Assembly: GCF_051903065.1 (NCBI RefSeq)
Contig: NZ_CP178438.1
Direction: 5' to 3' (one strand)
Length of the DNA: 64,000 nucleotides
Origin: Escherichia coli
GTDB taxonomy: Bacteria > Pseudomonadota > Gammaproteobacteria > Enterobacterales > Enterobacteriaceae
Shown: positions 26,812 to 57,557 of the stretch, piece by piece
Position numbering within the stretch: position 1 is the stretch's first letter
Layout of the letters: each line of letters starts with the position of its first letter
The notes under the pieces: model-generated
Told to the model about the DNA's origin: nothing
What the model saw: the letters and a program-made list of their open reading frames with translations, nothing else
Databases searched by the model: none
Made by a program: the position numbers and the translations under genes

Positions 26812-28263
26812 ATGCATTTTCGCGCCATTACCCGAATCGTTGGACTACTGGTCATCTTATTTTCAGGGACCATGATTATCCCTGGGCTGGTAGCACTCAT
26901 CTACCGGGATGGAGCGGGCCGCGCTTTTACCCAGACCTTTTTTGTCGCCCTCGCCATTGGCTCTATGCTGTGGTGGCCGAACCGCAAAGAGAAGGGCGAA
27001 CTGAAATCCCGTGAGGGGTTTCTGATAGTGGTGCTGTTCTGGACCGTGCTGGGTAGTGTCGGTGCGCTCCCTTTTATCTTCTCGGAAAGCCCGAACCTCA
27101 CGATTACCGATGCGTTTTTTGAATCTTTCTCTGGCCTGACCACCACCGGGGCCACTACGCTGGTGGGGCTGGATTCGCTCCCTCATGCCATCCTCTTTTA
27201 TCGCCAGATGCTGCAATGGTTTGGCGGGATGGGGATCATCGTGTTAGCGGTTGCGATACTGCCTATCCTCGGCGTGGGTGGGATGCAGCTCTATCGTGCA
27301 GAAATGCCCGGCCCGCTGAAAGATAACAAAATGCGCCCGCGAATTGCGGAAACGGCGAAAACCCTGTGGTTGATTTATGTCTTGCTGACCGTCGCCTGTG
27401 CGCTGGCGTTGTGGTTTGCCGGAATGGATGCCTTTGATGCCATCGGCCATAGCTTTGCGACTATCGCTATTGGCGGCTTCTCGACACATGATGCCAGTAT
27501 CGGTTATTTCGATAGCCCGACTATTAACACTATCATTGCTATCTTCCTGCTGATCTCCGGCTGTAACTACGGTCTGCACTTTTCACTGTTAAGTGGGCGT
27601 AGTCTGAAGGTTTATTGGCGCGATCCGGAATTTCGCATGTTTATCGGCGTACAGTTTACGCTGGTGGTTATTTGTACCCTCGTACTGTGGTTTCATAATG
27701 TCTACAGTTCGGCGCTGATGACAATTAACCAGGCGTTTTTCCAGGTGGTGTCGATGGCGACAACCGCCGGGTTTACGACTGACAGCATTGCCCGCTGGCC
27801 GCTCTTTTTGCCGGTACTGCTTTTATGTTCCGCTTTTATCGGCGGTTGTGCCGGGTCAACGGGCGGTGGCCTGAAAGTGATCCGCATCCTGCTGCTGTTT
27901 AAGCAGGGGAACCGTGAGCTGAAACGACTGGTGCATCCGAACGCCGTCTATAGCATTAAGCTGGGGAATCGCGCACTGCCGGAACGTATCCTCGAAGCCG
28001 TTTGGGGATTTTTCTCCGCCTATGCATTGGTGTTTATTGTCAGTATGCTGGCGATTATCGCCACGGGCGTGGATGACTTTTCTGCTTTTGCCTCGGTTGT
28101 TGCGACATTGAATAACCTGGGGCCGGGGCTTGGCGTGGTTGCTGATAACTTTACCAGTATGAACCCGGTGGCTAAATGGATCCTGATTGCCAACATGCTG
28201 TTTGGTCGTCTCGAGGTCTTTACATTGCTGGTGCTCTTTACCCCGACTTTCTGGCGTGAATGA
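26812..28263 (+). CDS. trkH: potassium uptake protein TrkH
   Basis: 483 aa polytopic membrane ORF matching TrkH. Confidence 0.93.
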   Translation: MHFRAITRIVGLLVILFSGTMIIPGLVALIYRDGAGRAFTQTFFVALAIGSMLWWPNRKEKGELKSREGFLIVVLFWTVLGSVGALPFIFSESPNLTITDAFFESFSGLTTTGATTLVGLDSLPHAILFYRQMLQWFGGMGIIVLAVAILPILGVGGMQLYRAEMPGPLKDNKMRPRIAETAKTLWLIYVLLTVACALALWFAGMDAFDAIGHSFATIAIGGFSTHDASIGYFDSPTINTIIAIFLLISGCNYGLHFSLLSGRSLKVYWRDPEFRMFIGVQFTLVVICTLVLWFHNVYSSALMTINQAFFQVVSMATTAGFTTDSIARWPLFLPVLLLCSAFIGGCAGSTGGGLKVIRILLLFKQGNRELKRLVHPNAVYSIKLGNRALPERILEAVWGFFSAYALVFIVSMLAIIATGVDDFSAFASVVATLNNLGPGLGVVADNFTSMNPVAKWILIANMLFGRLEVFTLLVLFTPTFWRE

Positions 28264-28274
28264 TGGAGTAATAC

Positions 28275-28820
28275 GTGAAAACATTAATTCTTTTCTCAAC
28301 AAGGGACGGACAAACGCGCGAGATTGCCTCCTACTTGGCTTCGGAACTGAAAGAACTGGGGATCCAGGCGGATGTCGCCAATGTGCACCGCATTGAAGAA
28401 CCACAGTGGGAAAACTACGACCGTGTGGTCATTGGTGCTTCTATTCGCTATGGTCACTACCACTCTGCGTTCCAGGAATTTGTCAAAAAACATGCGACGC
28501 GACTGAATTCGATGCCGAGCGCCTTTTATTCCGTAAACCTGGTGGCGCGCAAACCGGAGAAGCGTACTCCACAGACCAACAGCTACGCGCGGAAGTTTCT
28601 GATGAACTCGCAATGGCGTCCCGATCGCTGCGCGGTCATTGCCGGGGCGCTGCGTTACCCACGTTATCGCTGGTACGACCGTTTTATGATCAAGCTGATT
28701 ATGAAGATGTCAGGCGGTGAAACGGATACGCGCAAAGAAGTTGTCTATACTGATTGGGAGCAGGTGGCGAATTTCGCCCGAGAAATCGCCCATTTAACCG
28801 ACAAACCGACGCTGAAATAA
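28275..28820 (+). CDS. hemG: protoporphyrinogen IX dehydrogenase (menaquinone), flavodoxin-like
   Basis: 181 aa ORF matching HemG. Confidence 0.92.
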
Positions 28821-28845
28821 GCATAAAGAATAAAAAATGCGCGGT

Positions 28846-29066
28846 CAGAAAATTATTTTAAATTTCCTCTTGTCAGGCCGGAATAACTCCCTATAATGCG
28901 CCACCACTGACACGGAACAACGGCAAACACGCCGCCGGGTCAGCGGGGTTCTCCTGAGAATTCCGGCAGAGAAAGCAAAAATAAATGCTTGACTCTGTAG
29001 CGGGAAAGCGTATTATGCACACCCCGCGCCGCTGAGAAAAAGCGAAGCGGCACTGCTCTTTAACAA
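28846..29066 (+). promoter_or_regulatory. rrn tandem promoters P1 and P2 with UP element and boxA antiterminator
   Basis: P1 -35 TTGTCA (28870-28875) and -10 TATAAT (28892-28897) with AT-rich UP element upstream and GC-rich discriminator; P2 -35 TTGACT (28989-28994) and -10 TATTAT (29011-29016); boxA-like TGCTCTTTAACAA at 29054-29066. Confidence 0.85.
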
Positions 29067-29197
29067 TTTATCAGACAATCTGTGTGGGCACTCGAAGATA
29101 CGGATTCTTAACGTCGCAAGACGAAAAATGAATACCAAGTCTCAAGAGTGAACACGTAATTCATTACGAAGTTTAATTCTTTGAGCATCAAACTTTT

Positions 29198-30739
<1,542 letters not shown>

Positions 30740-30807
30740 CCTTAAAGAAGCGTACTTTGCAGTGCTCACACAGATTGTCTGATGAAAATGAGCAGTAAAA
30801 CCTCTAC

Positions 30808-30884
<77 letters not shown>

Positions 30885-30926
30885 AATTTGCACGGCAAAT
30901 TTGAAGAGGTTTTAACTACATGTTAT

Positions 30927-31002
30927 GGGGCTATAGCTCAGCTGGGAGAGCGCCTGCTTTGCACGCAGGAGGTCTGCGGTTCGATCCCGCATAGCTCCAC
31001 CA
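30927..31002 (+). tRNA. alaT: tRNA-Ala (UGC)
   Basis: GGGGCTATAGCTCAGCTGGGAGAGCGCCTGCTTTGCACGCAGG...CTCCACCA in spacer. Confidence 0.97.
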
Positions 31003-31176
31003 TCTCTGTAGTGATTAAATAAAAAATACTTCAGAGTGTACCTGCAAAGGTTCACTGCGAAGTTTTGCTCTTTAAAAATCTGGATCAAGCTGAAAATTGA
31101 AACACTGAACAACGAGAGTTGTTCGTGAGTCTCTCAAATTTTCGCAACTCTGAAGTGAAACATCTTCGGGTTGTGA

Positions 31177-34079
<2,903 letters not shown>

Positions 34080-34172
34080 ACAACGCCGAAGCTGTTTTGG
34101 CGGATTGAGAGAAGATTTTCAGCCTGATACAGATTAAATCAGAACGCAGAAGCGGTCTGATAAAACAGAATT

Positions 34173-34292
34173 TGCCTGGCGGCCGTAGCGCGGTGGTCCC
34201 ACCTGACCCCATGCCGAACTCAGAAGTGAAACGCCGTAGCGCCGATGGTAGTGTGGGGTCTCCCCATGCGAGAGTAGGGAACTGCCAGGCAT
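34173..34292 (+). rRNA. rrfA: 5S ribosomal RNA
   Basis: TGCCTGGCGGCCGTAGCGCGGTGGTCCCACC...GGGAACTGCCAGGCAT, 120 nt. Confidence 0.98.
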
Positions 34293-34303
34293 CAAATAAA
34301 GCG

Positions 34304-34332
34304 AAAGGCCATCCTGACGGATGGCCTTTTTG
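34304..34332 (+). terminator. rrn operon intrinsic terminator
   Basis: aaaggccatcc-tgac-ggatggccttttt hairpin plus T-run directly after 5S. Confidence 0.85.
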
Positions 34333-34371
34333 CGTTGGTGAAAAAAATGCCGGATGCGACGCTGGTGAACA

Positions 34372-35120
<749 letters not shown>

Positions 35121-36988: not shown

Positions 36989-37258
36989 ATGAAATGTAAA
37001 CGTCTGAATGAAGTTATTGAACTCCTCCAGCCAGCCTGGCAAAAAGAGCCAGATCTTAACCTGTTGCAATTTTTGCAGAAACTGGCGAAAGAGTCAGGTT
37101 TTGACGGCGAACTGGCGGATTTGACGGATGACATTCTGATCTATCACCTGAAAATGCGTGATTCCGCGAAAGATGCGGTGATCCCGGGTTTGCAGAAAGA
37201 TTATGAAGAAGACTTCAAAACGGCGCTGTTACGCGCTCGCGGCGTAATTAAAGAGTAA
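36989..37258 (+). CDS. yihD: DUF1040 protein YihD
   Basis: ORF track 36959..37258 trimmed to ATG at 36989 (89 aa). Confidence 0.8.
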
Positions 37259-37334
37259 AAGCTTGTAAGCGGCGCCACCAAAATCATCGTGAAATGATAT
37301 CCTTCATCATTCGTAATGTTTTCCGGATGATGGG

Positions 37335-38321
37335 ATGAACAACAGCGCTTTTACTTTCCAGACACTACACCCGGATACCATCATGGACGCTCTGTTTGAG
37401 CAAGGGATCCGGGTGGATTCCGGTCTTACCCCGCTTAACAGCTATGAAAACCGTGTCTATCAATTTCAGGACGAAGATCGTCGACGTTTTGTCGTCAAAT
37501 TTTATCGCCCTGAACGTTGGACAGCCGATCAAATCCTCGAAGAACATCAATTTGCGTTGCAGCTGGTAAATGATGAAGTTCCGGTCGCAGCACCTGTGGC
37601 CTTTAACGGTCAGACTTTATTGAATCATCAGGGATTTTATTTCGCTGTTTTTCCCAGCGTCGGTGGTCGCCAGTTCGAAGCTGATAATATCGATCAGATG
37701 GAAGCGGTTGGGCGTTATTTAGGGCGTATGCACCAGACGGGGCGCAAACAGCTTTTTATCCATCGCCCGACCATCGGTCTGAATGAATATCTCATTGAGC
37801 CACGCAAGCTGTTTGAGGACGCTACACTGATACCTTCCGGGTTGAAAGCGGCATTCCTGAAAGCGACAGATGAGCTGATCGCCGCCGTTACAGCACACTG
37901 GCGGGAAGATTTCACCGTTCTGCGGCTACATGGAGACTGCCACGCCGGGAATATTCTCTGGCGCGATGGTCCAATGTTTGTTGATCTGGATGATGCACGT
38001 AATGGTCCAGCTATTCAGGATTTGTGGATGTTGCTCAATGGCGATAAAGCCGAGCAGCGGATGCAACTGGAAACTATTATTGAAGCTTATGAAGAATTTA
38101 GCGAGTTCGACACCGCTGAAATCGGACTGATTGAACCTTTACGCGCCATGCGTTTGGTTTATTATCTTGCCTGGCTAATGCGGCGTTGGGCTGATCCCGC
38201 GTTCCCGAAAAATTTCCCGTGGTTAACCGGGGAAGATTACTGGCTACGACAGACGGCGACTTTTATAGAACAGGCAAAAGTTCTACAAGAACCCCCTTTG
38301 CAATTAACACCTATGTATTAA
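37335..38321 (+). CDS. srkA: stress response serine/threonine kinase SrkA (YihE/RdoA)
   Basis: 328 aa ORF, aminoglycoside-phosphotransferase-like kinase fold (HGDCHAGN, DLDD motifs). Confidence 0.88.
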   Translation: MNNSAFTFQTLHPDTIMDALFEQGIRVDSGLTPLNSYENRVYQFQDEDRRRFVVKFYRPERWTADQILEEHQFALQLVNDEVPVAAPVAFNGQTLLNHQGFYFAVFPSVGGRQFEADNIDQMEAVGRYLGRMHQTGRKQLFIHRPTIGLNEYLIEPRKLFEDATLIPSGLKAAFLKATDELIAAVTAHWREDFTVLRLHGDCHAGNILWRDGPMFVDLDDARNGPAIQDLWMLLNGDKAEQRMQLETIIEAYEEFSEFDTAEIGLIEPLRAMRLVYYLAWLMRRWADPAFPKNFPWLTGEDYWLRQTATFIEQAKVLQEPPLQLTPMY

Positions 38322-38337
38322 TCGGAGAGAGTAGATC

Positions 38338-38964
38338 ATGAAAAAGATTTGGCTGGCGCTGGCTGGTTTAGTTTTAGCGTTTAGCGCATCGGCGGCGCAG
38401 TATGAAGATGGTAAACAGTACACTACCCTGGAAAAACCGGTAGCTGGCGCGCCGCAAGTGCTGGAGTTTTTCTCTTTCTTCTGCCCGCACTGCTATCAGT
38501 TTGAAGAAGTTCTGCATATTTCTGATAATGTGAAGAAAAAACTGCCGGAAGGCGTGAAGATGACTAAATACCACGTCAACTTCATGGGTGGTGACCTGGG
38601 CAAAGATCTGACTCAGGCATGGGCTGTGGCGATGGCGCTGGGCGTGGAAGACAAAGTGACTGTTCCGCTGTTTGAAGGCGTACAGAAAACCCAGACCATT
38701 CGTTCTGCTTCTGATATCCGCGATGTATTTATCAACGCAGGTATTAAAGGTGAAGAGTACGACGCGGCGTGGAACAGCTTCGTGGTGAAATCTCTGGTCG
38801 CTCAGCAGGAAAAAGCTGCAGCTGACGTGCAATTGCGTGGTGTTCCGGCGATGTTTGTTAACGGTAAATATCAGCTGAATCCGCAGGGTATGGATACCAG
38901 CAATATGGATGTTTTTGTTCAGCAGTATGCTGATACTGTGAAATATCTGTCCGAGAAAAAATAA
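38338..38964 (+). CDS. dsbA: periplasmic thiol:disulfide oxidoreductase DsbA
   Basis: 208 aa ORF with signal peptide and CPHC active site. Confidence 0.95.
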
Positions 38965-38981
38965 TTCAATGTAAATTACAT

Positions 38982-39011
38982 AAAGCCCGTGAATATTCAC
39001 GGGCTTTTTTT
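38982..39011 (+). terminator. intrinsic terminator after dsbA
   Basis: aaagcccgtgaat-attcacgggcttttttt perfect hairpin with T-run. Confidence 0.85.
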
Positions 39012-39118
39012 ATTATTTTATAAATATAAATACATTCTGATAATGCATCCTGCCGCTGGACATTATTTCAGCATAAGTGGATATTCAAAGTTTTGCTGTT
39101 TTATCAGGGAATATTTAT

Positions 39119-39379
39119 ATGATACGTAAGTCAGCTACAGGTGTTATTGTTGCGTTAGCCGTAATCTGGGGTGGTGGCACATGGTACACAGGTACGCAAA
39201 TTCAGCCTGGTGTCGAAAAATTTATTAAAGATTTTAACGATGCTAAAAAGAAAGGTGAACATGCCTACGATATGACGTTAAGTTATAAAAACTTTGACAA
39301 AGGCTTTTTTAATTCCCATTTTCAAATGCAAATTTCATTTGATAACGGTGCACCCGATCTCAATATCAAGCCAGGCCAG
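39119..39379 (+). pseudogene. yihF: yihF 5' fragment (DUF945 protein), interrupted by IS1 after codon 87
   Basis: MIRKSATGVIVALAV... reading frame runs into IS1 end at 39380; continues in same frame after IS1. Confidence 0.85.
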
Positions 39380-39394
39380 GGTAATGACTCCAAC

Positions 39395-39898
39395 TTATTG
39401 ATAGTGTTTTATGTTCAGATAATGCCCGATGACTTTGTCATGCAGCTCCACCGATTTTGAGAACGACAGCGACTTCCGTCCCAGCCGTGCCAGGTGCTGC
39501 CTCAGATTCAGGTTATGCCGCTCAATTCGCTGCGTATATCGCTTGCTGATTACGTGCAGCTTTCCCTTCAGGCGGGATTCATACAGCGGCCAGCCATCCG
39601 TCATCCATATCACCACGTCAAAGGGTGACAGCAGGCTCATAAGACGCCCCAGCGTCGCCATAGTGCGTTCACCGAATACGTGCGCAACAACCGTCTTCCG
39701 GAGCCTGTCATACGCGTAAAACAGCCAGCGCTGGCGCGATTTAGCCCCGACATAGCCCCACTGTTCGTCCATTTCCGCGCAGACGATGACGTCACTGCCC
39801 GGCTGTATGCGCGAGGTTACCGACTGCGGCCTGAGTTTTTTAAGTGACGTAAAATCGTGTTGAGGCCAACGCCCATAATGCGGGCTGTTGCCCGGCAT
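39395..39898 (-). CDS. insB: IS1 InsB (expressed as InsAB' by frameshift)
   Basis: 167 aa ORF matching IS1 InsB. Confidence 0.95.
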
Positions 39899-40092
39899 CC
39901 AACGCCATTCATGGCCATATCAATGATTTTCTGGTGCGTACCGGGTTGAGAAGCGGTGTAAGTGAACTGCAGTTGCCATGTTTTACGGCAGTGAGAGCAG
40001 AGATAGCGCTGATGTCCGGCGGTGCTTTTGCCGTTACGCACCACCCCGTCAGTAGCTGAACAGGAGGGACAGCTGATAGAAACAGAAGCCAC
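39817..40092 (-). CDS. insA: IS1 InsA
   Basis: 91 aa ORF, zinc-finger CPSCSA...CSHC, matches IS1 InsA. Confidence 0.95.
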
Positions 40093-40147
40093 TGGAGCAC
40101 CTCAAAAACACCATCATACACTAAATCAGTAAGTTGGCAGCATCACC

Positions 40148-41326
40148 CCAGGCCAGAAAGTTGTATTTGATGTGGATGTTGAGCACGGTCCGTTGCCCAT
40201 CACAATGTTAATGCATGGTAATGTCATCCCAGCACTGGCAGCGGCAAAAGTGAACTTAGTGAATAATGAACTGACACAACCGCTATTTATCGCCGCGAAA
40301 AATAAATCGCCCGTGGAAGCGACATTGCGATTCGCGTTTGGTGGCTCATTCTCTACGACATTAGATGTTGCCCCTGCAGAGTATGGAAAGTTTTCTTTTG
40401 GTGAGGGCCAGTTTACTTTTAATGGTGATGGTAGTTCATTGTCTAACCTGGATATTGAAGTCAAAGTCGAAGATATTGTTCTGCAATTATCACCAATGAA
40501 CAAAGTAACGGCAAAAAGTTTTACCATTGATTCTCTGACACGATTAGAAGAAAAGAAATTTCCGGTTGGTGAAAGCGAGTCGAAATTTAATCAGGTTAAT
40601 ATTATCAATCAGGGGGAAGACGTTGCCCAAATCGATGCTTTCGTTGCAAAAACCAGGCTGGATCGCGTTAAAGACAAAGATTATATCAATGTCAATCTGA
40701 CCTACGAACTTGATAAGTTAACAAAAGGGAATCAGCAACTCGGTAGTGGTGAGTGGTCATTGATTGCTGAATCTATTGATCCCTCAGCAGTGCGCCAATT
40801 TATCATCCAGTATAACATTGCGATGCAGAAGCAGCTTGCTGCACACCCTGAGTTAGCAAACGATGAAGTTGCTCTGCAAGAAGTGAATGCTGCATTGTTC
40901 AAAGAGTATTTACCGTTATTACAACAAAGTGAGCCGACCATTAAACAACCGGTAAGATGGAAGAACGCACTCGGCGAACTAAATGCCAATCTGGATATCA
41001 GTATTGCCGACCCAGCCAAATCTTCATCATCCACAAACAAAGATATTAAATCGCTCAATTTTGATGTGAAGATACCGCTTAATGTCGCCACAGAAATCGC
41101 AAAACAGCTTAATTTATCTGAAGGAATGGATGCGGAAAAAGCGCAAAAGCAGGCTGATAAACAAATCAGCGGGATGATGACATTAGGTCAGATGTTTCAG
41201 TTAATCACGATTGACAACAATACCGCCTCGCTGCAACTGCGTTATACACCGGGTAAAGTTGTTTTTAACGGACAGGAGATGAGCGAAGAAGAATTTATGT
41301 CTCGTGCCGGACGTTTTGTTCATTAA
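40148..41326 (+). pseudogene. yihF: yihF 3' fragment (DUF945), continues frame of 5' fragment across IS1 and its 9-bp duplication
   Basis: PGQKVVFDVDVEHGPLP... same frame as 39119..39379; ORF track 40172..41326. Confidence 0.85.
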
Positions 41327-41366
41327 AATACTCACTCGCCTCTGCTCATTCAGAGGCGAGCAAAAT

Positions 41367-42299
41367 TTACTTGTCCTGCCGCTGTGATGACATCAACGAC
41401 GTCAGAAGCCGGTCTTTTTCCTGCCACAGTGAGTTCAGCCATTGCTGAAAATGGCGCTTAAAGCTTTTGTCATTGATGTAGTCGCCATGTAACTCATCGG
41501 CAACAGGCTGCAAATCCACATGTACGACAATCCGCGTCAGTTTACCGCTTAACATATCGAAGAACGGCTGACGGTTATTGTCCGGATAACACAGCGTAAC
41601 ATTAAGCAGTTTATCGAATTGTTTACCCAGTACATTTAGCGCCATCGCAATGCCTGCCGCCTTTGGTGGCAACAAGTTTTGAAAAGTGGAGTGGGTTTGC
41701 TGATGTTTTTCTTGCGTGAAACGGGAGCCTTCAACGAAATTGACAATGGTGGTGGGATGCAGGCGAAACTTTTCACAAGAACGCCGAGTGGTTTCAACAT
41801 CTTTACCACGTCGCTCCGGATGACGTAATAAATAAGCGCGGGAATAACGCTTCATAAACGGCATATCCAGCGCCCAGCACGCCAGGCCAAGAAATGGCAC
41901 CCAGGCCAGCTGTTGCTTGAGGAAATATTTATTCATCGGAATGTGCTTACGAAACAGCACGCACAGTACGACAATATCTGCCCAACTACGGTGGTTACAA
42001 ATAAGCAGATACCAGTTCTTCTTACTTAACCCTTCCAGCCCGTGAACTTCCCATTGCAGGTGTGGGTTCAGATGCAGTAATACCGCCAGACCTTCACACC
42101 AGCAATACATCATAAAATCACAAAAACGCGAAACCTTTCGCCAAATGACTGGCACAGGTAGCAATAGTTTTACAATCCCGGCAATGATGATCGGGACGGA
42201 ACAAAAAATAGTGACCAAAATGGTCAATACGATACTCAGCAAAAGGGTTATCGCAGCGAGTATTCTCGTCATAATGAATTTATTCAAAAGGTTAGCCAT
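41367..42299 (-). CDS. yihG: acyltransferase (PlsC/lysophospholipid acyltransferase family) YihG
   Basis: ORF track 41367..42323 trimmed to ATG at 42299 (310 aa); NHRSWADIV acyltransferase motif. Confidence 0.85.
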
Positions 42300-42662
42300 A
42301 GACAGTGCGCTAAAGAAGCGCAAGGCGCAGATTTTAGCAGAAAACGACCCAAATAACGGATGATCCTTAAGGAGAAAAATAATTCATATCTATCCACATT
42401 AGAAAAAATCCCATTATCTCAATTATTAGGGATGGCTTTATTTTTAACTGCATGAAAAACAAAGACAAACATCATGCTGTAAAAAGCATGATAATAAATT
42501 AAAAGCGATGTAAATAATTTATGCACAAAGTTATCCACATGACGATTTGCGAGCGATCCAGAAGATCTACAAAAGATTTTCACGAAAAGCGGTGAAAAAC
42601 TCATGTTTTTATCCTGTCTGTGGCATCCTTTACCCATAATCTGATAAACAGGCACGGACATT

Positions 42663-45449
42663 ATGGTTCAGATCCCCCAAAATCCACTTATCCTTGTAGA
42701 TGGTTCATCTTATCTTTATCGCGCATATCACGCGTTTCCTCCGCTGACTAACAGCGCAGGCGAGCCGACCGGTGCGATGTATGGTGTCCTCAACATGCTG
42801 CGCAGTCTGATCATGCAATATAAACCGACGCATGCAGCGGTGGTCTTTGACGCCAAGGGAAAAACCTTTCGTGATGAACTGTTTGAACATTACAAATCAC
42901 ATCGCCCGCCAATGCCGGACGATCTGCGTGCACAAATCGAACCCTTGCACGCGATGGTTAAAGCGATGGGACTGCCGCTGCTGGCGGTTTCTGGCGTAGA
43001 AGCGGACGACGTTATCGGTACTCTGGCGCGCGAAGCCGAAAAAGCCGGGCGTCCGGTGCTGATCAGCACTGGCGATAAAGATATGGCGCAGCTGGTGACG
43101 CCAAATATTACGCTTATCAATACCATGACGAATACCATCCTCGGACCGGAAGAGGTGATGAATAAGTACGGCGTGCCGCCAGAACTGATCATCGATTTCC
43201 TGGCGCTGATGGGTGACTCCTCTGATAACATTCCTGGCGTACCGGGCGTCGGTGAAAAAACCGCGCAGGCATTGCTGCAAGGTCTTGGCGGGCTGGATAC
43301 GCTGTATGCCGAGCCAGAAAAAATTGCTGGGTTGAGCTTCCGTGGCGCGAAAACAATGGCAGCGAAGCTCGAGCAAAACAAAGAAGTTGCTTATCTCTCA
43401 TACCAGCTGGCGACGATTAAAACCGACGTTGAACTGGAGCTGACCTGTGAACAACTGGAAGTGCAGCAACCGGCAGCGGAAGAGTTGTTGGGGCTGTTCA
43501 AAAAGTATGAGTTCAAACGCTGGACTGCTGATGTCGAAGCGGGCAAATGGTTACAGGCCAAAGGGGCAAAACCCGCCGCGAAGCCACAGGAAACCAGTGT
43601 TGCAGACGAAGCTCCAGAAGTGACGGCAACGGTGATTTCTTATGACAACTACGTCACCATCCTTGATGAAGAAACACTGAAAGCGTGGATTGCGAAGCTG
43701 GAAAAAGCGCCGGTATTTGCATTTGATACCGAAACCGACAGCCTTGATAACATCTCTGCTAACCTGGTCGGGCTTTCTTTTGCTATCGAGCCAGGCGTAG
43801 CGGCATATATTCCGGTTGCTCATGATTATCTTGATGCGCCCGATCAAATCTCTCGCGAGCGTGCACTCGAGTTGCTAAAACCGCTGCTGGAAGATGAAAA
43901 GGCGCTGAAGGTCGGGCAAAACCTGAAATACGATCGCGGTATTCTGGCGAATTACGGCATTGAGCTGCGTGGGATTGCGTTTGATACCATGCTGGAGTCC
44001 TACATTCTCAATAGCGTTGCCGGGCGTCACGATATGGACAGCCTCGCGGAACGTTGGTTGAAGCACAAAACCATCACTTTTGAAGAGATTGCGGGTAAAG
44101 GCAAAAATCAACTGACCTTTAACCAGATTGCCCTCGAAGAGGCCGGACGTTACGCCGCCGAAGATGCGGATGTCACCTTGCAGTTGCATCTGAAAATGTG
44201 GCCAGATCTGCAAAAACACAAAGGGCCGTTGAACGTCTTCGAGAATATCGAAATGCCGCTGGTGCCGGTGCTTTCACGCATTGAACGTAACGGTGTGAAG
44301 ATCGATCCGAAAGTGCTGCACAATCATTCTGAAGAGCTTACCTTGCGTCTGGCTGAGCTGGAAAAGAAAGCGCATGAAATTGCAGGTGAGGAATTTAACC
44401 TTTCTTCCACCAAGCAGTTACAAACCATTCTGTTTGAAAAACAGGGCATTAAACCACTGAAGAAAACGCCGGGTGGCGCGCCGTCAACGTCGGAAGAGGT
44501 ACTGGAAGAACTGGCGCTGGACTATCCGTTGCCAAAAGTGATTCTGGAGTATCGTGGTCTGGCGAAGCTGAAGTCGACTTACACCGACAAGCTGCCGCTG
44601 ATGATCAACCCGAAAACCGGGCGTGTGCATACCTCTTATCACCAGGCAGTAACTGCAACGGGACGTTTATCGTCAACCGATCCTAACCTGCAAAACATTC
44701 CGGTGCGTAACGAAGAAGGTCGTCGTATCCGCCAGGCGTTTATTGCGCCAGAGGATTATGTGATTGTCTCAGCGGACTACTCGCAGATTGAACTGCGCAT
44801 TATGGCGCATCTCTCGCGTGACAAAGGCTTGCTGACCGCATTCGCGGAAGGAAAAGATATCCACCGGGCAACGGCGGCAGAAGTGTTTGGTTTGCCACTG
44901 GAAACCGTCACCAGCGAGCAACGCCGTAGCGCGAAAGCGATCAACTTTGGTCTGATTTATGGCATGAGTGCTTTCGGTCTGGCGCGGCAATTGAACATTC
45001 CACGTAAAGAAGCGCAGAAGTACATGGACCTTTACTTCGAACGCTACCCTGGCGTGCTGGAGTATATGGAACGCACCCGTGCTCAGGCGAAAGAGCAGGG
45101 CTACGTTGAAACGCTGGACGGACGCCGTCTGTATCTGCCGGATATCAAATCCAGCAATGGTGCTCGTCGTGCAGCGGCTGAACGTGCAGCCATTAACGCG
45201 CCAATGCAGGGAACCGCCGCCGACATTATCAAACGGGCGATGATTGCCGTTGATGCGTGGTTACAGGCTGAGCAACCGCGTGTACGTATGATCATGCAGG
45301 TACACGATGAACTGGTATTTGAAGTCCATAAAGATGATGTCGATGCCGTCGCGAAGCAGATTCATCAACTGATGGAAAACTGTACCCGTCTGGATGTGCC
45401 GTTGCTGGTGGAAGTGGGGAGTGGCGAAAACTGGGATCAGGCGCACTAA
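42663..45449 (+). CDS. polA: DNA polymerase I
   Basis: 928 aa ORF, 5'-3' exonuclease, 3'-5' exonuclease and polymerase domains recognisable. Confidence 0.97.
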
Positions 45450-45596
45450 GATTCGCCTGAACATGCCCTTTTTTCGTAAGTAAGCAACATAAGCTGTCAC
45501 GTTTTGTGATGGCTATTAGAAATTCCTATGCAACAACTGAAAAAAAATTACAAAAAGTGCTTTCTGAACTGAACAAAAAAGAGTAAAGTTAGTCGC

Positions 45597-45706
45597 GTAG
45601 GGTACAGAGGTAAGATGTTCTATCTTTCAGACCTTTTACTTCACGTAATCGGATTTGGCTGAATATTTTAGCCGCCCCAGTCAGTAATGACTGGGGCGTT
45701 TTTTAT
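45597..45706 (+). ncRNA. spf: Spot 42 small RNA
   Basis: GTAGGGTACAGAGGTAAGATGTTCTATCTTTCAGACC...GCCGCCCCAGTCAGTAATGACTGGGGCGTTTTTTA matches Spot 42 including terminator. Confidence 0.9.
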
Positions 45707-45728
45707 TGGGCGAAAGAAAAAATCCGCA

Positions 45729-45812
45729 ATGCCTGATGCGCCATGTTTATCAGGCCAACGGTAGAATTGTAATCTATTGAATTTACGGGCCGGATACGCC
45801 ACATCCGGCACA
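45729..45812. repeat. REP palindromic units downstream of spf
   Basis: gcctgatgcgccatgtttatcaggcc and gccggatacgccacatccggca REP-type palindromes. Confidence 0.75.
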
Positions 45813-45830
45813 AGCATTAAGGCAAGAAAA

Positions 45831-46463
45831 TTATTCGCCGTCCTGCGTTTCTTCTACAGGCTGCATCTCGCTAAACCAGGTATCCAGTTTCTGCCGCAGC
45901 TTGTCCACGCCTTGTTTCTTCAACGAAGAAAACGTTTCAACCTGCACATCACCGTTAAACGCCAGTACAGCTTCACGCACCATATTCAATTGCGCTTTAC
46001 GTGCGCCGCTTGCCAGTTTGTCCGCTTTGGTCAGCAACACCAGCACGGCGATATTGCTGTCTACCGCCCACTCAATCATCTGCTGATCCAAATCTTTCAG
46101 CGGATGGCGAATATCCATTAGCACTACCAGACCTTGTAGGCTCTGACGTTTTTCGAGGTACTCGCCGAGCGCGCGCTGCCATTTGCGCTTCATCTCTTCC
46201 GGGACTTCCGCATAACCGTACCCAGGCAAGTCAACCAGACGCTTGCCGTCAGCCACTTCAAACAGGTTGATAAGCTGGGTGCGTCCTGGGGTTTTTGAGG
46301 TACGAGCCAGGCTTTTCTGGTTAGTCAGCGTGTTCAGCGCGCTGGATTTACCTGCGTTGGAACGGCCTGCAAAAGCCACTTCAATTCCGGTATCGGAAGG
46401 TAGGTGGCGAATATCAGGCGCACTCATCACAAAATGCGTCTGTTGATAATTCAAATTAGTCAA
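45831..46463 (-). CDS. engB: ribosome biogenesis GTP-binding protein EngB (YihA)
   Basis: 210 aa ORF with G1 motif GRSNAGKSS. Confidence 0.92.
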
Positions 46464-46733
46464 AGCGGTCGTCTCCGTCAGTCAAAGCTTTGTGGCGATT
46501 ATACCTGAACCATAATAAAAGGCGGATTTTTCGGCGTGAGCGTTGTAAGTAAAAGCCATACGCTTTGTGAGACATTGCCGATAGTCTTTATGCGAAATAG
46601 CAGAGAAAATTCTGCGATGCATGTCAAATAAGCTATATAAATCAGTGAATTGCTTTTATATAAAACTCTGAAAATGTGCAAATACTGATGGCGGTTGATT
46701 GTTTGTTTAAAGCAAAGGCGTAAAGTAACACCC

Positions 46734-46977
46734 ATAGAGCGAGGACGCTAACAGGAACAATGACTCAGGATGAGGGTCAGGAGCGCCAGGAGGCGAAGAC
46801 AGAGGATTGTCAGGAAGACAAACGTCCGGAGACGTAATTAAACGGAAATGGAATCAACACGGATTGTTCCGGCTAATGGAAAAACAGGGTGTGTTGGCGG
46901 CCTGCAAGGATTGTAAGACCCGTTAAGGGTTATGAGTCAGGAAAAAAGGCGACAGAGTAATCTGTCGCCTTTTTTCT
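46734..46977 (+). ncRNA. csrC: CsrC small RNA (CsrA-sequestering)
   Basis: Multiple GGA motifs in AGGA/CAGGA contexts (caggatgagggtcaggagcgccaggaggcg...) ending in hairpin ggcgacagagtaatctgtcgcc plus T-run; location between engB and yihI. Confidence 0.85.
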
Positions 46978-47044
46978 TTGCTTGCTTTCTGTTAGATTCC
47001 GCCGCAAATCTATACTGAATAAAACGGCTAAAAGACGAACCATT

Positions 47045-47551
47045 ATGAAACCATCTTCACCATCACGCAGCAAAGGTCATGCAAAAGCGCGTCGCAAAAC
47101 GCGCGAAGAGCTGAATCAGGAAGCTCGTGACCGCAAGCGTCAGAAAAAACGTCGTGGTCATGCGCCGGGCAGCCGCGCAGCGGGCGGTAACACCACGTCA
47201 GGCAGCAAAGGCCAGAACGCACCAAAAGATCCACGTATTGGCAGTAAAACCCCTATTCCATTGGGCGTGACTGAAAAAGTCACCAAACAGCACAAACCGA
47301 AGAGTGAGAAACCTATGCTTTCACCGCAGGCGGAGTTGGAATTACTGGAAACGGATGAGCGTCTGGATGCGCTGCTGGAACGTCTGGAAGCAGGCGAAAC
47401 CCTGAGTGCCGAAGAGCAATCCTGGGTGGATGCTAAACTGGATCGTATTGATGAGTTGATGCAGAAACTCGGCCTCTCTTATGACGATGACGAAGAAGAG
47501 GAAGAAGACGAGAAGCAAGAAGACATGATGCGTCTGCTGCGGGGCAACTAA
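47045..47551 (+). CDS. yihI: Der GTPase-activating protein YihI
   Basis: ORF track 46982..47551 trimmed to ATG at 47045; basic N-terminus and acidic C-terminus. Confidence 0.85.
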
Positions 47552-47739
47552 CGGATTGCCGCCGTGGGCCTTCCCGTTCTGCTGATAACCCTTCCGGTTA
47601 TATGTTATCTGGTGTGGTTATTCGTTAAACTACAGCGGTTGTCGCGGCGACAAAAGTGGCTGCGCAACCGGCTGATGACCCGAAACGGGCATCCGCCGGT
47701 ACGCCGTAGCCGCCAGAGACGCCATCGGAAGGAGTGAGC

Positions 47740-49113
47740 ATGTCTGTACAGCAAATCGACTGGGATCTGGCCCTGATCCAGAAATATAACTATTCCGGGC
47801 CACGATACACCTCGTACCCGACCGCGCTGGAGTTTTCAGAAGACTTCGGCGAACAGGCGTTTTTACAAGCCGTGGCGCGCTATCCTGAGCGTCCATTATC
47901 TCTCTACGTACATATCCCGTTCTGCCATAAGCTTTGTTACTTCTGCGGCTGCAATAAGATTGTTACTCGCCAGCAGCACAAGGCCGATCAGTATCTGGAC
48001 GCGCTGGAGCAAGAAATCGTCCATCGTGCACCGCTGTTCGCCGGGCGTCACGTCAGCCAATTGCACTGGGGCGGCGGAACGCCGACGTATCTTAATAAAG
48101 CGCAAATCAGCCGCCTGATGAAGCTGCTGCACGAAAACTTCCAGTTCAATGCCGATGCGGAGATTTCGATCGAAGTCGATCCGCGGGAAATCGAACTGGA
48201 TGTACTCGATCATTTACGCGCCGAAGGCTTTAATCGCCTGAGCATGGGCGTGCAGGACTTCAACAAAGAAGTGCAACGTCTGGTTAACCGCGAGCAGGAT
48301 GAAGAGTTTATCTTTGCACTGCTTAACCATGCGCGTGAGATTGGTTTTACCTCCACCAACATCGACCTGATTTACGGCCTGCCGAAACAGACGCCGGAAA
48401 GTTTCGCCTTTACCCTGAAACGTGTGGCGGAGCTGAACCCCGATCGTCTGAGCGTCTTTAACTACGCGCATTTGCCGACCATTTTTGCTGCTCAGCGCAA
48501 AATCAAAGATGCTGACCTGCCGAGTCCGCAGCAAAAACTCGATATCCTGCAGGAAACCATCGCCTTCCTGACGCAATCGGGCTATCAGTTTATCGGTATG
48601 GATCACTTTGCCCGTCCTGATGACGAGCTGGCGGTGGCCCAGCGTGAAGGCGTGCTGCATCGTAACTTCCAGGGCTACACCACTCAGGGCGATACCGATC
48701 TGCTGGGGATGGGCGTTTCCGCCATCAGCATGATTGGCGACTGCTACGCGCAGAACCAGAAAGAGTTGAAACAGTACTATCAGCAAGTGGATGAACAAGG
48801 CAATGCGCTGTGGCGTGGTATTGCGCTAACGCGTGATGACTGTATTCGCCGCGATGTGATTAAGTCGCTCATCTGCAACTTCCGTCTGGATTACGCCCCT
48901 ATTGAGAAACAGTGGGATTTGCACTTCGCTGATTACTTTGCGGAAGATCTCAAGCTGCTCGCCCCGTTAGCAAAAGATGGGCTGGTGGATGTGGATGAGA
49001 AGGGGATTCAGGTGACGGCGAAAGGTCGCTTGCTGATCCGCAACATTTGCATGTGCTTTGATACCTATCTGCGCCAGAAAGCGCGGATGCAGCAGTTCTC
49101 TCGGGTGATTTAA
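47740..49113 (+). CDS. hemN: oxygen-independent coproporphyrinogen III oxidase (radical SAM)
   Basis: ORF track 47734..49113 trimmed to ATG at 47740 (457 aa); CxxxCxxC radical SAM motif (CHKLCYFC). Confidence 0.93.
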   Translation: MSVQQIDWDLALIQKYNYSGPRYTSYPTALEFSEDFGEQAFLQAVARYPERPLSLYVHIPFCHKLCYFCGCNKIVTRQQHKADQYLDALEQEIVHRAPLFAGRHVSQLHWGGGTPTYLNKAQISRLMKLLHENFQFNADAEISIEVDPREIELDVLDHLRAEGFNRLSMGVQDFNKEVQRLVNREQDEEFIFALLNHAREIGFTSTNIDLIYGLPKQTPESFAFTLKRVAELNPDRLSVFNYAHLPTIFAAQRKIKDADLPSPQQKLDILQETIAFLTQSGYQFIGMDHFARPDDELAVAQREGVLHRNFQGYTTQGDTDLLGMGVSAISMIGDCYAQNQKELKQYYQQVDEQGNALWRGIALTRDDCIRRDVIKSLICNFRLDYAPIEKQWDLHFADYFAEDLKLLAPLAKDGLVDVDEKGIQVTAKGRLLIRNICMCFDTYLRQKARMQQFSRVI

Positions 49114-49179
49114 ATAGTGAATGGCGCTTCGTTTACAAAGTAGAAAACGAAAGCGCCATCAATGTGCTGAGAACAAGAT

Positions 49180-49270
49180 TGCCTGATGCGCTACGCTTAT
49201 CAGGCCTACAAAACCTGTTGAAAATATTGCTTTTGTAGGCCGGATAAGGCGTTCACGCCGCATCCGGCAT
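49180..49270. repeat. REP palindromic units (BIME-like) downstream of hemN
   Basis: gcctgatgcgctacgcttatcaggcctac and ggccggataaggcgttcacgccgcatccggca. Confidence 0.8.
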
Positions 49271-49302
49271 GAACAAAGAGCACTTCATCAGCAATCTGAA
49301 AC

Positions 49303-49413
49303 TCAACTAAACAGCCCAATCATCGCGGCACACAGCACGGCAGCAACAGCAGTTTGCGGTGTGTGGCTGTCAACTGCGCCACTCGATACCAGATTAATTA
49401 TTGATTCCAGCAT
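49303..49413 (-). CDS. yshB: small hydrophobic protein (36 aa), YshB-like
   Basis: Minus-strand ATG at 49413 gives MLESIINLVSSGAVDSHTPQTAVAAVLCAAMIGLFS; below ORF-track size cutoff; recalled small gene between hemN and glnG in K-12. Confidence 0.5.
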   Translation of the reverse strand: MLESIINLVSSGAVDSHTPQTAVAAVLCAAMIGLFS

Positions 49414-49524
49414 AATGACTCTCCCCGTTTTCCGGGCAAGATCATACTGAACTTATCGGAACAGTAAAGCGCAAAATACCAGCAATTTGCGCTCAATAAT
49501 CAATCTTTACACACAAGCCGTGAA

Positions 49525-50934
49525 TCACTCCATCCCCAGCTCTTTTAACTTACGCGTCAGGGTGTTACGGCCCCAGCCAAGTAGCCGCGCCGCTTCCTGT
49601 TTATGCCCCTGCGTATGTCGCAACGCGGTCGTCAGTAACGTCCGCTCCAGCTCTGGCTGCGCTTCGGAAAGCAGATTTTGATGACCGGAACGCAGCGCTC
49701 TGTCTGCCCACTGCGCAAGAAGCGTCGCCCAACTGTCCGGTTGCATTTGCGAAGTACTCTCCGCAACCGTTGATTCAAACAGTTCGCCGGGCAAATCCTG
49801 AATCAACACTTCCTGCCCGGCGGCCATCACCGTTAGCCAGCGGCAGGTGTTTTCCAGCTGGCGCACGTTGCCTGGCCACGCCAGACGCGTCAGAGCAGCT
49901 TCGGTTTCCGGATGCAGCAACTTCGCTTCTACGCCCAGTTCGCGCGCGGCAACCTGTAAAAAATGGCGCGCCAGACGGGGAATATCTTCCCGACGCTCAC
50001 GCAGCGGCGGCAGATGAACGCGGATAACGTTCAGGCGGTGGAACAGATCCTCACGGAACTTACCTTCCTGCACCCGCTGTTCGAGATTCTGGTGAGTGGC
50101 AGCGATAATCCGCACATCCACTTTCACCGGCGCATAGCCGCCAACGCGGTAAAACTGGCCGTCTGCCAGCACGCGCAGCAAACGCGTCTGCACATCCAGC
50201 GGCATATCGCCAATTTCATCGAGAAATAATGTACCGCCATCAGCCTGTTCAAAACGCCCCTGACGAATGGTATTCGCGCCGGTAAACGCGCCTTTCTCGT
50301 GACCAAACAGTTCTGATTCGATCAAATCCTTCGGGATAGCCGCCATATTCAGAGCGATAAATGGCGCTTTGGCTCGCGGACTGTGGCGATGCAGGGCATG
50401 AGCGACCAGTTCTTTACCGGTGCCGGATTCGCCGTTAATCAGCACGCTAATAGAAGAACGCGAAAGCCGACCGATAATACGGAACACGTCCTGCATGGCT
50501 GGCGCTTCGCCGATGATATCGGTCGTTGGGCCGTTAAGCTGAACATTACGCGGCTGCTGCTGTTCCTGGTAATGACTGATGGCGCGCTCAACCAGCGCCA
50601 CGGCTTCGTCGATATCAAACGGTTTGGGCAGATAATCAAACGCCCCTTGTTGATAGGCGCTGACGGCAGCATCCAGATCGGAATGTGCGGTCATAATGAT
50701 GACCGGAAGCATCGGATGGCGCTGTTTAATCTGCTTGAGCAGTGCCAGCCCGTCCATTCCCGGCATACGGATATCTGAAAGCAGCACATCCGGCGTTTTG
50801 CTCGCCAGCGCCTCCAGTACCTCCGCGCCGTTCTCAAATGTCGTACAGGTTAAACCCGCTCCAGCGAGCGCACGTTCAAGCACCCAACGGATGGAACTAT
50901 CGTCATCGACTACCCAGACTATCCCTCGTTGCAT
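49525..50934 (-). CDS. glnG: nitrogen regulation response regulator NtrC (sigma54-dependent activator)
   Basis: ORF track 49525..50994 trimmed to ATG at 50934 (469 aa); receiver domain, AAA+ GESGTGKE, C-terminal HTH. Confidence 0.95.
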
Positions 50935-50945
50935 AAACGTCACCT

Positions 50946-51995
50946 TTATTTCCTGATAGGCAGGTAAACCGAGAACTCGGTATGCCCTGGCCAACTGGTA
51001 AATTCAATTTTGCCTGAATGCTGATCAATCAAATTACGAGCGATGGATAAGCCAAGCCCGGTGCCACCTTCGCGGCCGCTGACCATCGGGTAAAACAGCG
51101 TATCCTGCAAATGAGGCGGAATGCCTGGCCCGTTATCTTCCACATCAATCCGCGCCGCCAGCCGATAGCGTTCGCCGTGTAAGGTCAGTTGAAACGCGGT
51201 ACGGGTACGCAGAATGATTTCACCGCCTTCCGGCCCCAGCGCCTGTAGCGCATTGCGCACAATATTCAGCAAGACCTGTTCAATTTGATCCGGGTCGTGC
51301 GCCAGTTCTGGCAGGCTGGGGTCGTAATCACGAATCAACCGCACGTTGTCCGGCAGTTCCATCGACACCAGCGTCACCACGCGTTCAGCTACTTTGTGAA
51401 TACTTTCGGTCACGCGCGTACCGGGCAGCTGCGGCCCCAACAGACGGTCGACCAGATTTCGCAGCCGGTCCGCCTGTTCGATAATCACTTTGGTATATTC
51501 CAGCAGTGACGGGTCAGGTAATGCTTTGCTGAGTAGCTGCGCCGCGCCACGTAAACCGCCAAGCGGATTTTTAATCTCATGTGCCAGGCCACGCACTAAA
51601 TCACGGGCAGCAACTTGTTGAGCATGTTGTAGCTGTTCCTGGCTTAAGCGGCGCTGGTTATCCATCGGCGCCATCTCCAGCAGGATCATGCCGTCCGGCA
51701 TACGCTGGGCCGTCACAGAAAGGATATGCGAGCGCCCGTCGATGACCAGCGTCACTTCGTTATCGGTAAAACCTTGCCCCGCCTCCAGACTTTCTTGCAT
51801 CAGCTCGATATTTAATGAGAAGTAGCTCAACAGTTCCGGTAACGGTGTACCAAACAATTTGCGGGAGCTTTGGGCGAGCAGTTGTTGCGCGGCGGGGTTG
51901 GCGTAATGGATCGCCAGGTTGTCATCGATTAACAAAATACTGTTAATCAGCGAGTTGAGGATCTGCCCAGCATCGGGCTGCGTGCCTGTTGCCAT
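50946..51995 (-). CDS. glnL: nitrogen regulation sensor histidine kinase NtrB
   Basis: 349 aa ORF with H-box HEIKNPL. Confidence 0.95.
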
Positions 51996-52168
51996 AAAGC
52001 AGTCTCCTGAACAGGTTGCACCATTTTAGTGCATTATAGCTTTTTACGGATAAAAAGCGCGAAGCATCAGAGAATTGACGGAGAAAAAAGCCCATGCAGA
52101 GATGGGCTGAAAGTTTCCACGGCAACTAAATCCCGGCGTTGTTGCGCCGGGTAGTACAACTTCAACTA

Positions 52169-53578
52169 TTAGACGCTGTAGTACAGCTCAAACTCTACCG
52201 GATGCGGAGTCATACGCACGCGGTCATCTTCTTCGCGACGCAGAGCGATGTACGCATCGATCGCTTCATCCGTGAACACGCCACCGGCTTTCAGGAACTC
52301 GCGGTCCAGATCCAGCTCGTTCAGTGCTTCTTCCAGAGAGCCTGCAACTTGTGGGATCTCTTTCGCTTCTTCTGGCGGCAGGTCATACAGGTTTTTGTCC
52401 ATGGCTTCGCCCGGATGGATCTTGTTCTTGATACCATCAAGACCGGCCATCAGCAGGGCAGCAAAGCACAGGTACGGGTTAGCCGCCGGATCCGGGAAAC
52501 GTACTTCGATACGACGCGCTTTCGGAGAAGAAACCACTGGAATACGGATAGAAGCAGAACGGTTACGTGCAGAGTAAGCCAGCATTACCGGTGCTTCGTA
52601 GCCCGGGACCAGACGCTTATAAGAGTTGGTGGTCGGGTTTGCCAGGGCGTTAATCGCTTTCGCGTGTTTGATTACGCCGCCAATGTAGTACAGCGCCTGC
52701 TCAGACAGACCAGCGTATTTGTCGCCCGCGAACAGGTTAACGCCGTTTTTAGACAGAGACATGTGGCAGTGCATACCGGAGCCGTTATCACCGAACATCG
52801 GTTTTGGCATAAAGGTCGCGGTTTTACCGAAGCGGTGCGCTACGTTGTGCACAACATATTTGTAGATCTGAATTTCGTCAGCTTTTTTGGTCATGGTATT
52901 GAAGCGGGTAGCCACTTCGTTCTGACCAGCAGTTGCTACTTCGTGGTGATGGGCTTCAACCACCAGACCCATCTGTTCCATCACCAGACACATTTCAGAA
53001 CGAATATCCTGAGCCGAGTCTACCGGCGGAACCGGGAAGTAACCGCCTTTAACTGCCGGACGGTGACCTTTGTTACCACCTTCATATTGGGTGGAGGAGT
53101 TCCATGCGCCTTCGATATCGTCGATAGCAACATGAGAACCGGAGATAGATGATCCGAAACGGATATCATCGAACAGGAAGAATTCAGGTTCTGGCCCGAA
53201 CAGTACGGTGTCGGCAATGCCAGTAGAACGCAGGTAATCTTCAGCGCGCTTCGCGATGGAGCGCGGGTCACGGTCATAGCCTTGCAGGGTGCCAGGTTCA
53301 AGGATGTCGCAACGGATAATCAGGGTGGAGTCGGCGAAGAACGGGTCAATCACTGCGGTGGATGCGTCTGGCATCAGCACCATGTCGGACTCGTTAATGC
53401 CTTTCCAGCCGCCAATCGAGGAGCCGTCAAACATTTTGCCTTCTTCGAAGAATTCGGCATTCACCTGATGAGCAGGGATAGTGACGTGCTGTTCTTTACC
53501 TTTGGTATCGGTGAAGCGCAAATCAACAAACTTCACTTCGTGCTCGTTCAGCATCGTCAGTACGTGTTCAGCGGACAT
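52169..53578 (-). CDS. glnA: glutamine synthetase
   Basis: 469 aa ORF matching GlnA. Confidence 0.97.
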
Positions 53579-53659
53579 ACTTTAACTCTCCTGGATTGGT
53601 CATTGTCGTCGTGGTAACGAAATCTGCAATTATTTTGGCCGTGTCGCCGTAAAAAAGAT

Positions 53660-53800
53660 AAAGCGAAAACTGTGCCAACTTTTAAATTGCCCCTAAAAGG
53701 CGTTATCATGCTTAACATCGTGCAAAAGGGCTGCACCATGATGTGAATGTTGCACCAATATAGTGCTTCAATGGAAACATTAAGCACCATATTGGTGCAA
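53660..53800 (-). promoter_or_regulatory. glnA regulatory region: sigma54 promoter glnAp2 and upstream NtrC enhancer sites
   Basis: Minus-strand TTGGCACAGTTTTCGCT (-24 GG / -12 GC spacing) at about 53662-53679; NtrC-type palindromes TGCACCAATATAGTGC (53751-53766) and GCACCATATTGGTGC (53785-53799). Confidence 0.8.
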
Positions 53801-53950
53801 TGACCTTTGGATAACCCTTTTTATGCTCCGTGAAAGCGATCACAAAGGGACTCTGCAATACTTGTTTGCGGAGGATGTTTGTGATCCTGTTTTGTAGTGC
53901 GATTAATCCGTGTACAATAACGCGCTATTTCTAATGCCTGAGGCAAAGTT

Positions 53951-55774: not shown

Positions 55775-55792
55775 TTTCGTTTTTTAGTTATA

Positions 55793-55825
55793 AAAAACCT
55801 GCCATCGCTGGCAGGTTTTTTTTTA
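55793..55825 (+). terminator. intrinsic terminator after typA
   Basis: aacctgccagcgatggcaggtt hairpin flanked by A-run and T-run. Confidence 0.85.
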
Positions 55826-55990
55826 CCTGTCGTGAGCGCACACCAATGCGAGTATCTCCCTTATAAGTCTGTGATTACGTCAATAGAGAGCTTTGTCACA
55901 ATTATCTGCAAAGTCATACGCCGTTAATTGCTTTCTTTTTTGGCGTAAGCGTAAGATGCTTCATCTGGTTTAAACCAAAAGGATTAAACA

Positions 55991-56701: not shown

Positions 56702-56708
56702 GTGTTTT

Positions 56709-56789
56709 ATGGTGACAATAAATAACGCAAGAAAGATTCTACAACGTGTCGACACTCTTCCTCTTTATTTACATGCTTATGCCTTTCAT
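56709..56789 (+). pseudogene. 27-codon 5' stub of a gene (yihM-like by position) truncated by IS1
   Basis: ATG at 56709 opens frame MVTINNARKILQRVDTLPLYLHAYAFH that runs directly into IS1 left end at 56790; identity as yihM is positional inference only. Confidence 0.45.
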
Positions 56790-56844
56790 GGTGATGCTGC
56801 CAACTTACTGATTTAGTGTATGATGGTGTTTTTGAGGTGCTCCA

Positions 56845-57542: not shown

Positions 57543-57557
57543 GTTGGAGTCATTACC

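Follow-up and report, generated by a model that had tools for sequence, protein, structure and literature searches.

A simple IS1 insertion in yihF of Escherichia coli and its likely consequence for the gene

Introduction

In the stretch of Escherichia coli DNA analysed here, 64,000 nucleotides of contig NZ_CP178438.1 that are referred to below as the window, the reading frame of yihF is split by a copy of the insertion sequence IS1. The locus raises the question of how the element came to lie there, by one simple transposition or by a larger rearrangement, and of whether the part of the gene behind it could still be expressed. An initial annotation, made from the sequence without database searches, placed an intact 768-bp IS1 in the yihF frame after codon 87 and saw a perfect 9-bp repeat coding for Pro-Gly-Gln on both of its sides. 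It read this arrangement as a clean transposition with no secondary rearrangement, and suggested that an open frame of 384 codons in the 3' part of the gene could be expressed from outward transcription by IS1. The evidence presented below very strongly favours one simple transposition of an active IS1 into yihF, leaving a null or severely truncated allele. A literature search on the function of yihF or of DUF945 returned only list entries and NsrR ChIP data. The coordinates of the features discussed are collected in Table 1.

Table 1. Features at and around the interrupted yihF gene, in window coordinates.
Feature	Position	Strand	Details and basis
Hairpin between dsbA and yihF	38982-39007		Strong, 11-bp stem; plus-strand T-runs, terminator-like on both strands
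Candidate native yihF promoter	39057..39085	+	TGGACA-17-GATATT; consensus match only
yihF 5' fragment, codons 1-87	39119..39379	+	Covers 3-82 of the 460 positions of Pfam DUF945
Left copy of 9-bp target-site duplication	39371..39379		CCAGGCCAG
Intact IS1, 768 bp	39380..40147	-	IS1A-type variant
IS1 right-end inverted repeat (IRR)	39380..39402	+	GGTAATGACTCCAACTTATTGAT; adjoins yihF 5' fragment
insB reading frame, 167-aa ORF	39395..39898	-	Pfam PF03400 (DDE_Tnp_IS1), 1-131/131
insA, 91 aa	39817..40092	-	Zinc ribbon and helix-turn-helix; Pfam PF03811, PF12759, full length
A6C (AAAAAAC) programmed -1 frameshift motif	39835..39841	-	IS1 positions 307-313
Inward insA promoter-like site in IRL	40140..40113	-	Promoter scan
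IS1 left-end inverted repeat (IRL)	40125..40147	-	GGTGATGCTGCCAACTTACTGAT; adjoins yihF 3' fragment
Right copy of 9-bp target-site duplication	40148..40156		CCAGGCCAG
yihF 3' fragment: Pro-Gly-Gln codons again, then codons 88-476 and stop	40148..41326	+	Covers 81-459 of the 460 positions of Pfam DUF945
Intragenic NsrR 11-1-11 operator-like sequence	40158..40180	+	AAGTTGTATTTGATGTGGATGTT; match to published yihF site
Second IS1	56790-57557		100% identical to yihF copy, opposite orientation

The inserted element

The element shows the features by which a member of the IS1 family is recognized, namely its length, the two imperfect terminal inverted repeats of about 23 bp, both of which match the IS1 ends exactly, the insA and insB' frames, the A6C motif and a 9-bp duplication of the target. 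The conceptual InsAB' protein obtained by fusing the two frames through the -1 frameshift is 232 aa long and matches the NCBIfam model NF033558 from end to end (1-199/199) at 245 bits, the cut-off being 100. Compared to IS1A of K-12, a single nucleotide is different, and it falls within the insB frame. With the second IS1 copy of the window, and with many plasmid copies from E. coli, Salmonella and Citrobacter, the element shares 100% identity; because it is identical to such widespread copies, it is presumably a standard and active IS1.

Insertion site and target duplication

Counted from the yihF ATG at 39119, the nucleotides up to 39379 number 261, or 87 codons, after which the intact element begins just where the initial annotation had placed it. 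The nonamer CCAGGCCAG directly adjoins both ends of IS1 as a perfect direct repeat, both by reading of the sequence and by pattern search, and it does code for Pro-Gly-Gln as first described, these being residues Pro85-Gly86-Gln87 of YihF. Behind the element, 392 codons can be read from 40148 before the stop at 41324-41326; counted from the first possible start (GTG 40172) this gives an ORF of 384 aa, which is the open frame that had been reported for the 3' part.

Removal of IS1 together with one copy of the repeat restores an ORF of 1,431 nt, a yihF of 476 codons whose product covers the NCBIfam model NF008472 completely (1-476/476, 1029.7 bits against a cut-off of 738). Between the reconstructed gene and yihF of K-12 there are 19 nt differences, which change 12 aa; yihF of O145 RM9872 differs at 1 nt. 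The reconstructed protein belongs to the YihF/YdgA family (DUF945), and the gene holds the syntenic position dsbA-yihF-yihG. What the initial annotation had named as evidence against itself was an alignment in which the flanking 9-mers did not go back to one copy in the uninterrupted allele. In the intact yihF of K-12, of O145 RM9872 and of the near-isogenic strain ECNB21-M121, CCAGGCCAG is present as a single copy at nt 253-261, and the repeat is therefore a true target-site duplication. When the window without IS1 and one repeat is aligned with ECNB21-M121, 5,224 bp are covered with 2 mismatches and 0 gaps; the flanks of yihF are therefore collinear and nothing else in them has been rearranged, in agreement with the clean transposition that had been proposed.

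Copies of insertion sequences are classic sites of misassembly, and CCAGGCCAG occurs three times in the whole window, where 0.44 copies are expected, the third copy being at 41901. The element in yihF could on these grounds be taken as an assembly artefact flanked by 9-mers that match by chance. Against this, the same junctions are found in two independently deposited complete genomes, 23CRST027 and 23CRST031, and the repeat not only adjoins both IS ends exactly but also equals the single-copy target in the empty-site alleles, while a particular 9-mer would turn up again at one set position with a probability of 4^-9, or about 4e-6. An artefact of this kind is vanishingly improbable.

The second IS1 copy and the question of rearrangement

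The presence of another IS1 in the window suggests a different route to the same arrangement, in which yihF::IS1 would stem from a rearrangement, either by transposition of a composite element with the two copies as its ends or through recombination or inversion between them. The two copies form an inverted pair (39380-57557) that brackets 16.6 kb with yihG, polA, yihA, hemN, glnALG, typA and yihL, and their complete identity would suit such an event. The second copy also lies at a deletion. No target duplication was found at its flanks (56781-56789, GCCTTTCAT; 57558-57566, CAGATCGTA), the left of which is nt 81 of yihM while the right is inside an MFS transporter gene. At this point the window lacks 9,628 bp that are present in E. 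coli OSUCMP42NDM; the lost genes are yihM, yihN, yihU and those for a DeoR regulator, a sugar kinase, an aldolase, an alcohol dehydrogenase and MFS proteins, a sugar-catabolic cluster among them. The second IS1 thus marks an IS1-associated deletion, which is common to 23CRST027, 23CRST031 and ECNB21-M121, and IS1-mediated rearrangement has happened near yihF.

The arrangement of the duplication, however, argues against such an origin for the copy in yihF. The 9 bp are duplicated around this single copy, whereas the outer flanks of the pair are CCAGGCCAG and CAGATCGTA; a Tn9-like element would have its duplication at the outer ends of the IS1 pair, and these do not match. An inversion between the two copies would have separated the two copies of CCAGGCCAG from each other. 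From dsbA to yihL the genes follow each other as they do in K-12 and other strains, and in ECNB21-M121 the second IS1 occurs without the first. Both a composite transposon and an inversion are ruled out by the geometry of the duplication and by collinearity, and any origin of yihF::IS1 by rearrangement is extremely improbable. As the duplication in yihF is intact and the gene order is that of K-12, no inversion has taken place between the copies; the inverted identical pair is a potential substrate for inversion of the 16.6-kb segment by homologous recombination.

Elsewhere in the window, the roughly 6 kb from 28263 to 34398 hold no ORF of at least 200 aa wholly inside them on either strand. 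In K-12, rrlA and rrfA are located just upstream of mobB, and by this synteny the segment probably corresponds to rrnA, a ribosomal RNA operon.

Consequence for yihF

In a simple transposition, the IS1 transposase would have cut the DNA with a 9-bp stagger at CCAGGCCAG, within yihF, and repair of the staggered cut would have duplicated the 9 bp. The GC content of this target is 78%, compared to 31% for the 100 bp on its left, 41% for yihF and 51% for the window. IS1 is said to favour G/C-rich targets within AT-rich DNA, and the G/C-rich nonamer in the AT-rich yihF fits this preference.

Translation from the 5' end of yihF runs 26 codons into IS1 before a stop at 39458-39460, resulting in a truncated product of 113 aa; the native transcript would now code for residues 1-87 followed by 26 residues derived from the element. 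The protein is cut at 18% of its length, which suggests that yihF has been inactivated. The strongest hydrophobic segment of YihF, at residues ~5-23, is on the 5' fragment and is likely the membrane anchor of the protein. The remaining 389 native codons would be severed from this segment as well as from the promoter and the ribosome-binding site, for which reason they may be regarded as a pseudogene fragment. The neighbouring gene yihG is convergent to yihF, which leaves no gene downstream open to polar effects. The anatomy of the element, its duplication, the empty site, the collinearity and the distribution among genomes are seen directly; loss of yihF function, lack of expression of the 3' part and selective neutrality of the insertion are inferred.

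Upstream of the gene, a candidate promoter and a hairpin are present (Table 1), the hairpin being a strong terminator-like structure in both directions that sets dsbA apart from the yihF locus. An Rfam scan of positions 37000-43000 at E<=0.1 returned nothing beyond two sub-threshold Leu_leader matches over the dsbA terminator hairpin, which were taken as chance.

Expression of the 3' fragment

The initial annotation had also proposed that the 3' part of yihF is open to expression from outward transcription by IS1, a proposal that is left unsupported by the absence of a promoter at the junction, a poor -10 and weak Shine-Dalgarno sequences. The case for it begins with the hexamer TTGGCA in IRL (40134-40139, + strand), an outward -35 with a 5/6 match to consensus that could feed a hybrid promoter. 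According to PMC8764528, which cites Prentki et al. 1986, an outward -35 box at the ends of IS1 makes a hybrid promoter when a -10 is correctly spaced from it. A weak promoter of this type, or read-through from the yihF promoter across IS1, are possible sources of a 3' transcript, and with 392 open codons behind the element a fragment of 384-392 codons might still be made as an N-truncated YihF.

The same ST131 study found that IS1 activated its neighbour in 1 of 3 tested cases, and only with optimal spacing from a -10 (PMC8764528), which argues against activation here. A -10 for TTGGCA would have to fall in 40156-40163, where the hexamers at spacers of 16-18, GAAAGT, AAAGTT and AAGTTG, match TATAAT at 3, 2 and 1 of 6 positions; of the two parts of a hybrid promoter (a -35 and a -10 at 16-18 bp), the -35 is present and the -10 is at most a 3/6 match. 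A promoter scan of 39086-41500 detected no plus-strand promoter-like site, the IS1/yihF junction included. Were transcription to start near 40165-40170, the GTG at 40172 would be essentially leaderless. Ribosome-binding sites were sought at every in-frame start in the first 65 codons of the 3' fragment and were all weak or absent; for the in-frame starts, which include GTG 40172, TTG 40193 and the ATG codons at 40205 and 40211 as well as others further on, the anti-Shine-Dalgarno energies range from +1.2 to -3.4 kcal/mol, with the first of them between -0.4 and -3.4, compared to -5.1 for the native start. An in-frame TAA within IS1 at 40130-40132 blocks translational read-in from the element. 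Any 3' product would be without residues 1-87 and hence without the N-terminal hydrophobic segment, and would probably be mislocalised for want of its likely membrane anchor. IS1 insertions are classically polar in both orientations, as is known from the gal and lac literature of the 1970s, and this polarity also counts against transcription reaching the 3' fragment. Continued expression of the 3' fragment by either route is unlikely, and the same holds for residual expression that would be functional.

An NsrR operator next to the junction

The operator-like sequence for NsrR, AAGTTGTATTTGATGTGGATGTT, begins 2 nt past the right copy of the duplication and was left uncut by the insertion; it is 18 bp downstream of the outward -35-like TTGGCA. 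The corresponding yihF site in CFT073, AAATTGTATTTGATGTGGATGTT, which begins with AAATTG there, is ChIP-seq positive (PMC5320621, Table 4), and this intragenic operator has the fifth-best score in the CFT073 genome (PMC5320621). As reported within that article, yihF was also among the earlier ChIP-chip targets of NsrR in K-12, and most intragenic NsrR sites were judged non-functional by its authors (PMC5320621). The adjacency of the IS1 insertion and the operator is probably coincidental. It is very unlikely that the juxtaposition of the -35-like hexamer and the NsrR site makes or unmasks a weak NO-responsive promoter, whether for the 3' fragment or for a non-coding RNA. In a related reading, the NsrR site within the gene would belong to an internal promoter that exists naturally and is now split from the 5' end of yihF.

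Distribution among E. coli genomes

A search of 5,426 complete genomes of E. coli found the empty site, reconstructed as 500 bp, uninterrupted in 5,395 of them. Just two genomes, 23CRST027 and 23CRST031, both from human faeces in Ecuador, have this exact junction between IS1 and yihF. These two genomes match the window over 22.5 kb at ~100%, and 23CRST027 is identical to it over 6.3 kb save for 1 indel. In the PGAP annotation of 23CRST027 an IS1A transposase stands between the two halves of yihF, each of which is tagged as a pseudogene ('DUF945 family protein, incomplete'). ECNB21-M121 carries both junctions of the second IS1 of the window and an intact yihF, so the insertion in yihF is the younger of the two. 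The event is recent and restricted to one lineage, and it is real, ordinary and already known, in that public genomes of the same lineage carry it annotated as a pseudogene. It can be used as a lineage marker, being present in 23CRST027 and 23CRST031 and absent from ECNB21-M121, which orders the two IS1 events in time. As one more knockout of a non-essential and uncharacterised membrane-protein gene it is of little importance, beyond being a natural null allele of yihF.

Independent insertions of IS1-family elements in yihF occur in other E. coli lineages, each with a 9-bp duplication of its own. About 23 of the 5,426 genomes carry IS1 in yihF, with 18 oriented as in the window and 5 oppositely. 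A constraint on orientation, which would hint at selection for outward transcription, was looked for, and both orientations occur; the excess comes largely from one clonal ETEC group, hence no inference is drawn from it. A very rough neutral expectation, ~58,000 chromosomal IS1 places multiplied by the ~0.8 kb searched and divided by 4.9 Mb, gives a few insertions per orientation; this rough expectation and the observed counts are of the same order, and yihF is therefore not called a hotspot for IS1. Such counts agree with a dispensable yihF, and the independent insertions, at least a dozen among the 5,426 genomes, add to the evidence that the gene is dispensable in nature.

Comparison with known systems

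The nearest precedent for an expressed 3' fragment is the activation of genes by IS1 hybrid promoters (Prentki et al. 1986, as cited in PMC8764528, and afaA in ST131, as described in PMC8764528), with which yihF::IS1 shares an outward -35-like hexamer in the flanking IS1 end. Unlike promoters of the afaA type, it has no acceptable -10 at 16-18 bp, and the insertion is inside a coding sequence instead of upstream of one. As an element, the copy in yihF is like the IS1A/IS1R type in its 768 bp, terminal repeats, insA, insB', A6C motif and 9-bp duplication; no structural difference separates it from IS1A of K-12, and the plasmid copies identical to it are annotated as 'IS1A family'.

The closest relatives are the alleles of 23CRST027 and 23CRST031 (NZ_AP045789.1 and NZ_AP045800.1), in which the site, orientation and duplication are the same as in the window. 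The copy in 23CRST027 (NZ_AP045789.1) differs in that one C is missing in insB, corresponding to window position 39647, whereas the window copy is intact. The missing C is why PGAP labels that transposase 'frameshifted'; it may be either a genuine mutation that inactivates the element or a homopolymer misread in sequencing. In strain 203740 and the ETEC O25 group, IS1 is inserted in yihF with the duplication TCAATGTCA, 537 bp downstream of the site in the window, and in APEC-O117H42 an IS1X2 variant is present with the duplication CGGTGCACC, 24 bp upstream of it. These other yihF::IS1 alleles are like that of the window in that both halves of the gene are annotated as DUF945 pseudogene fragments.
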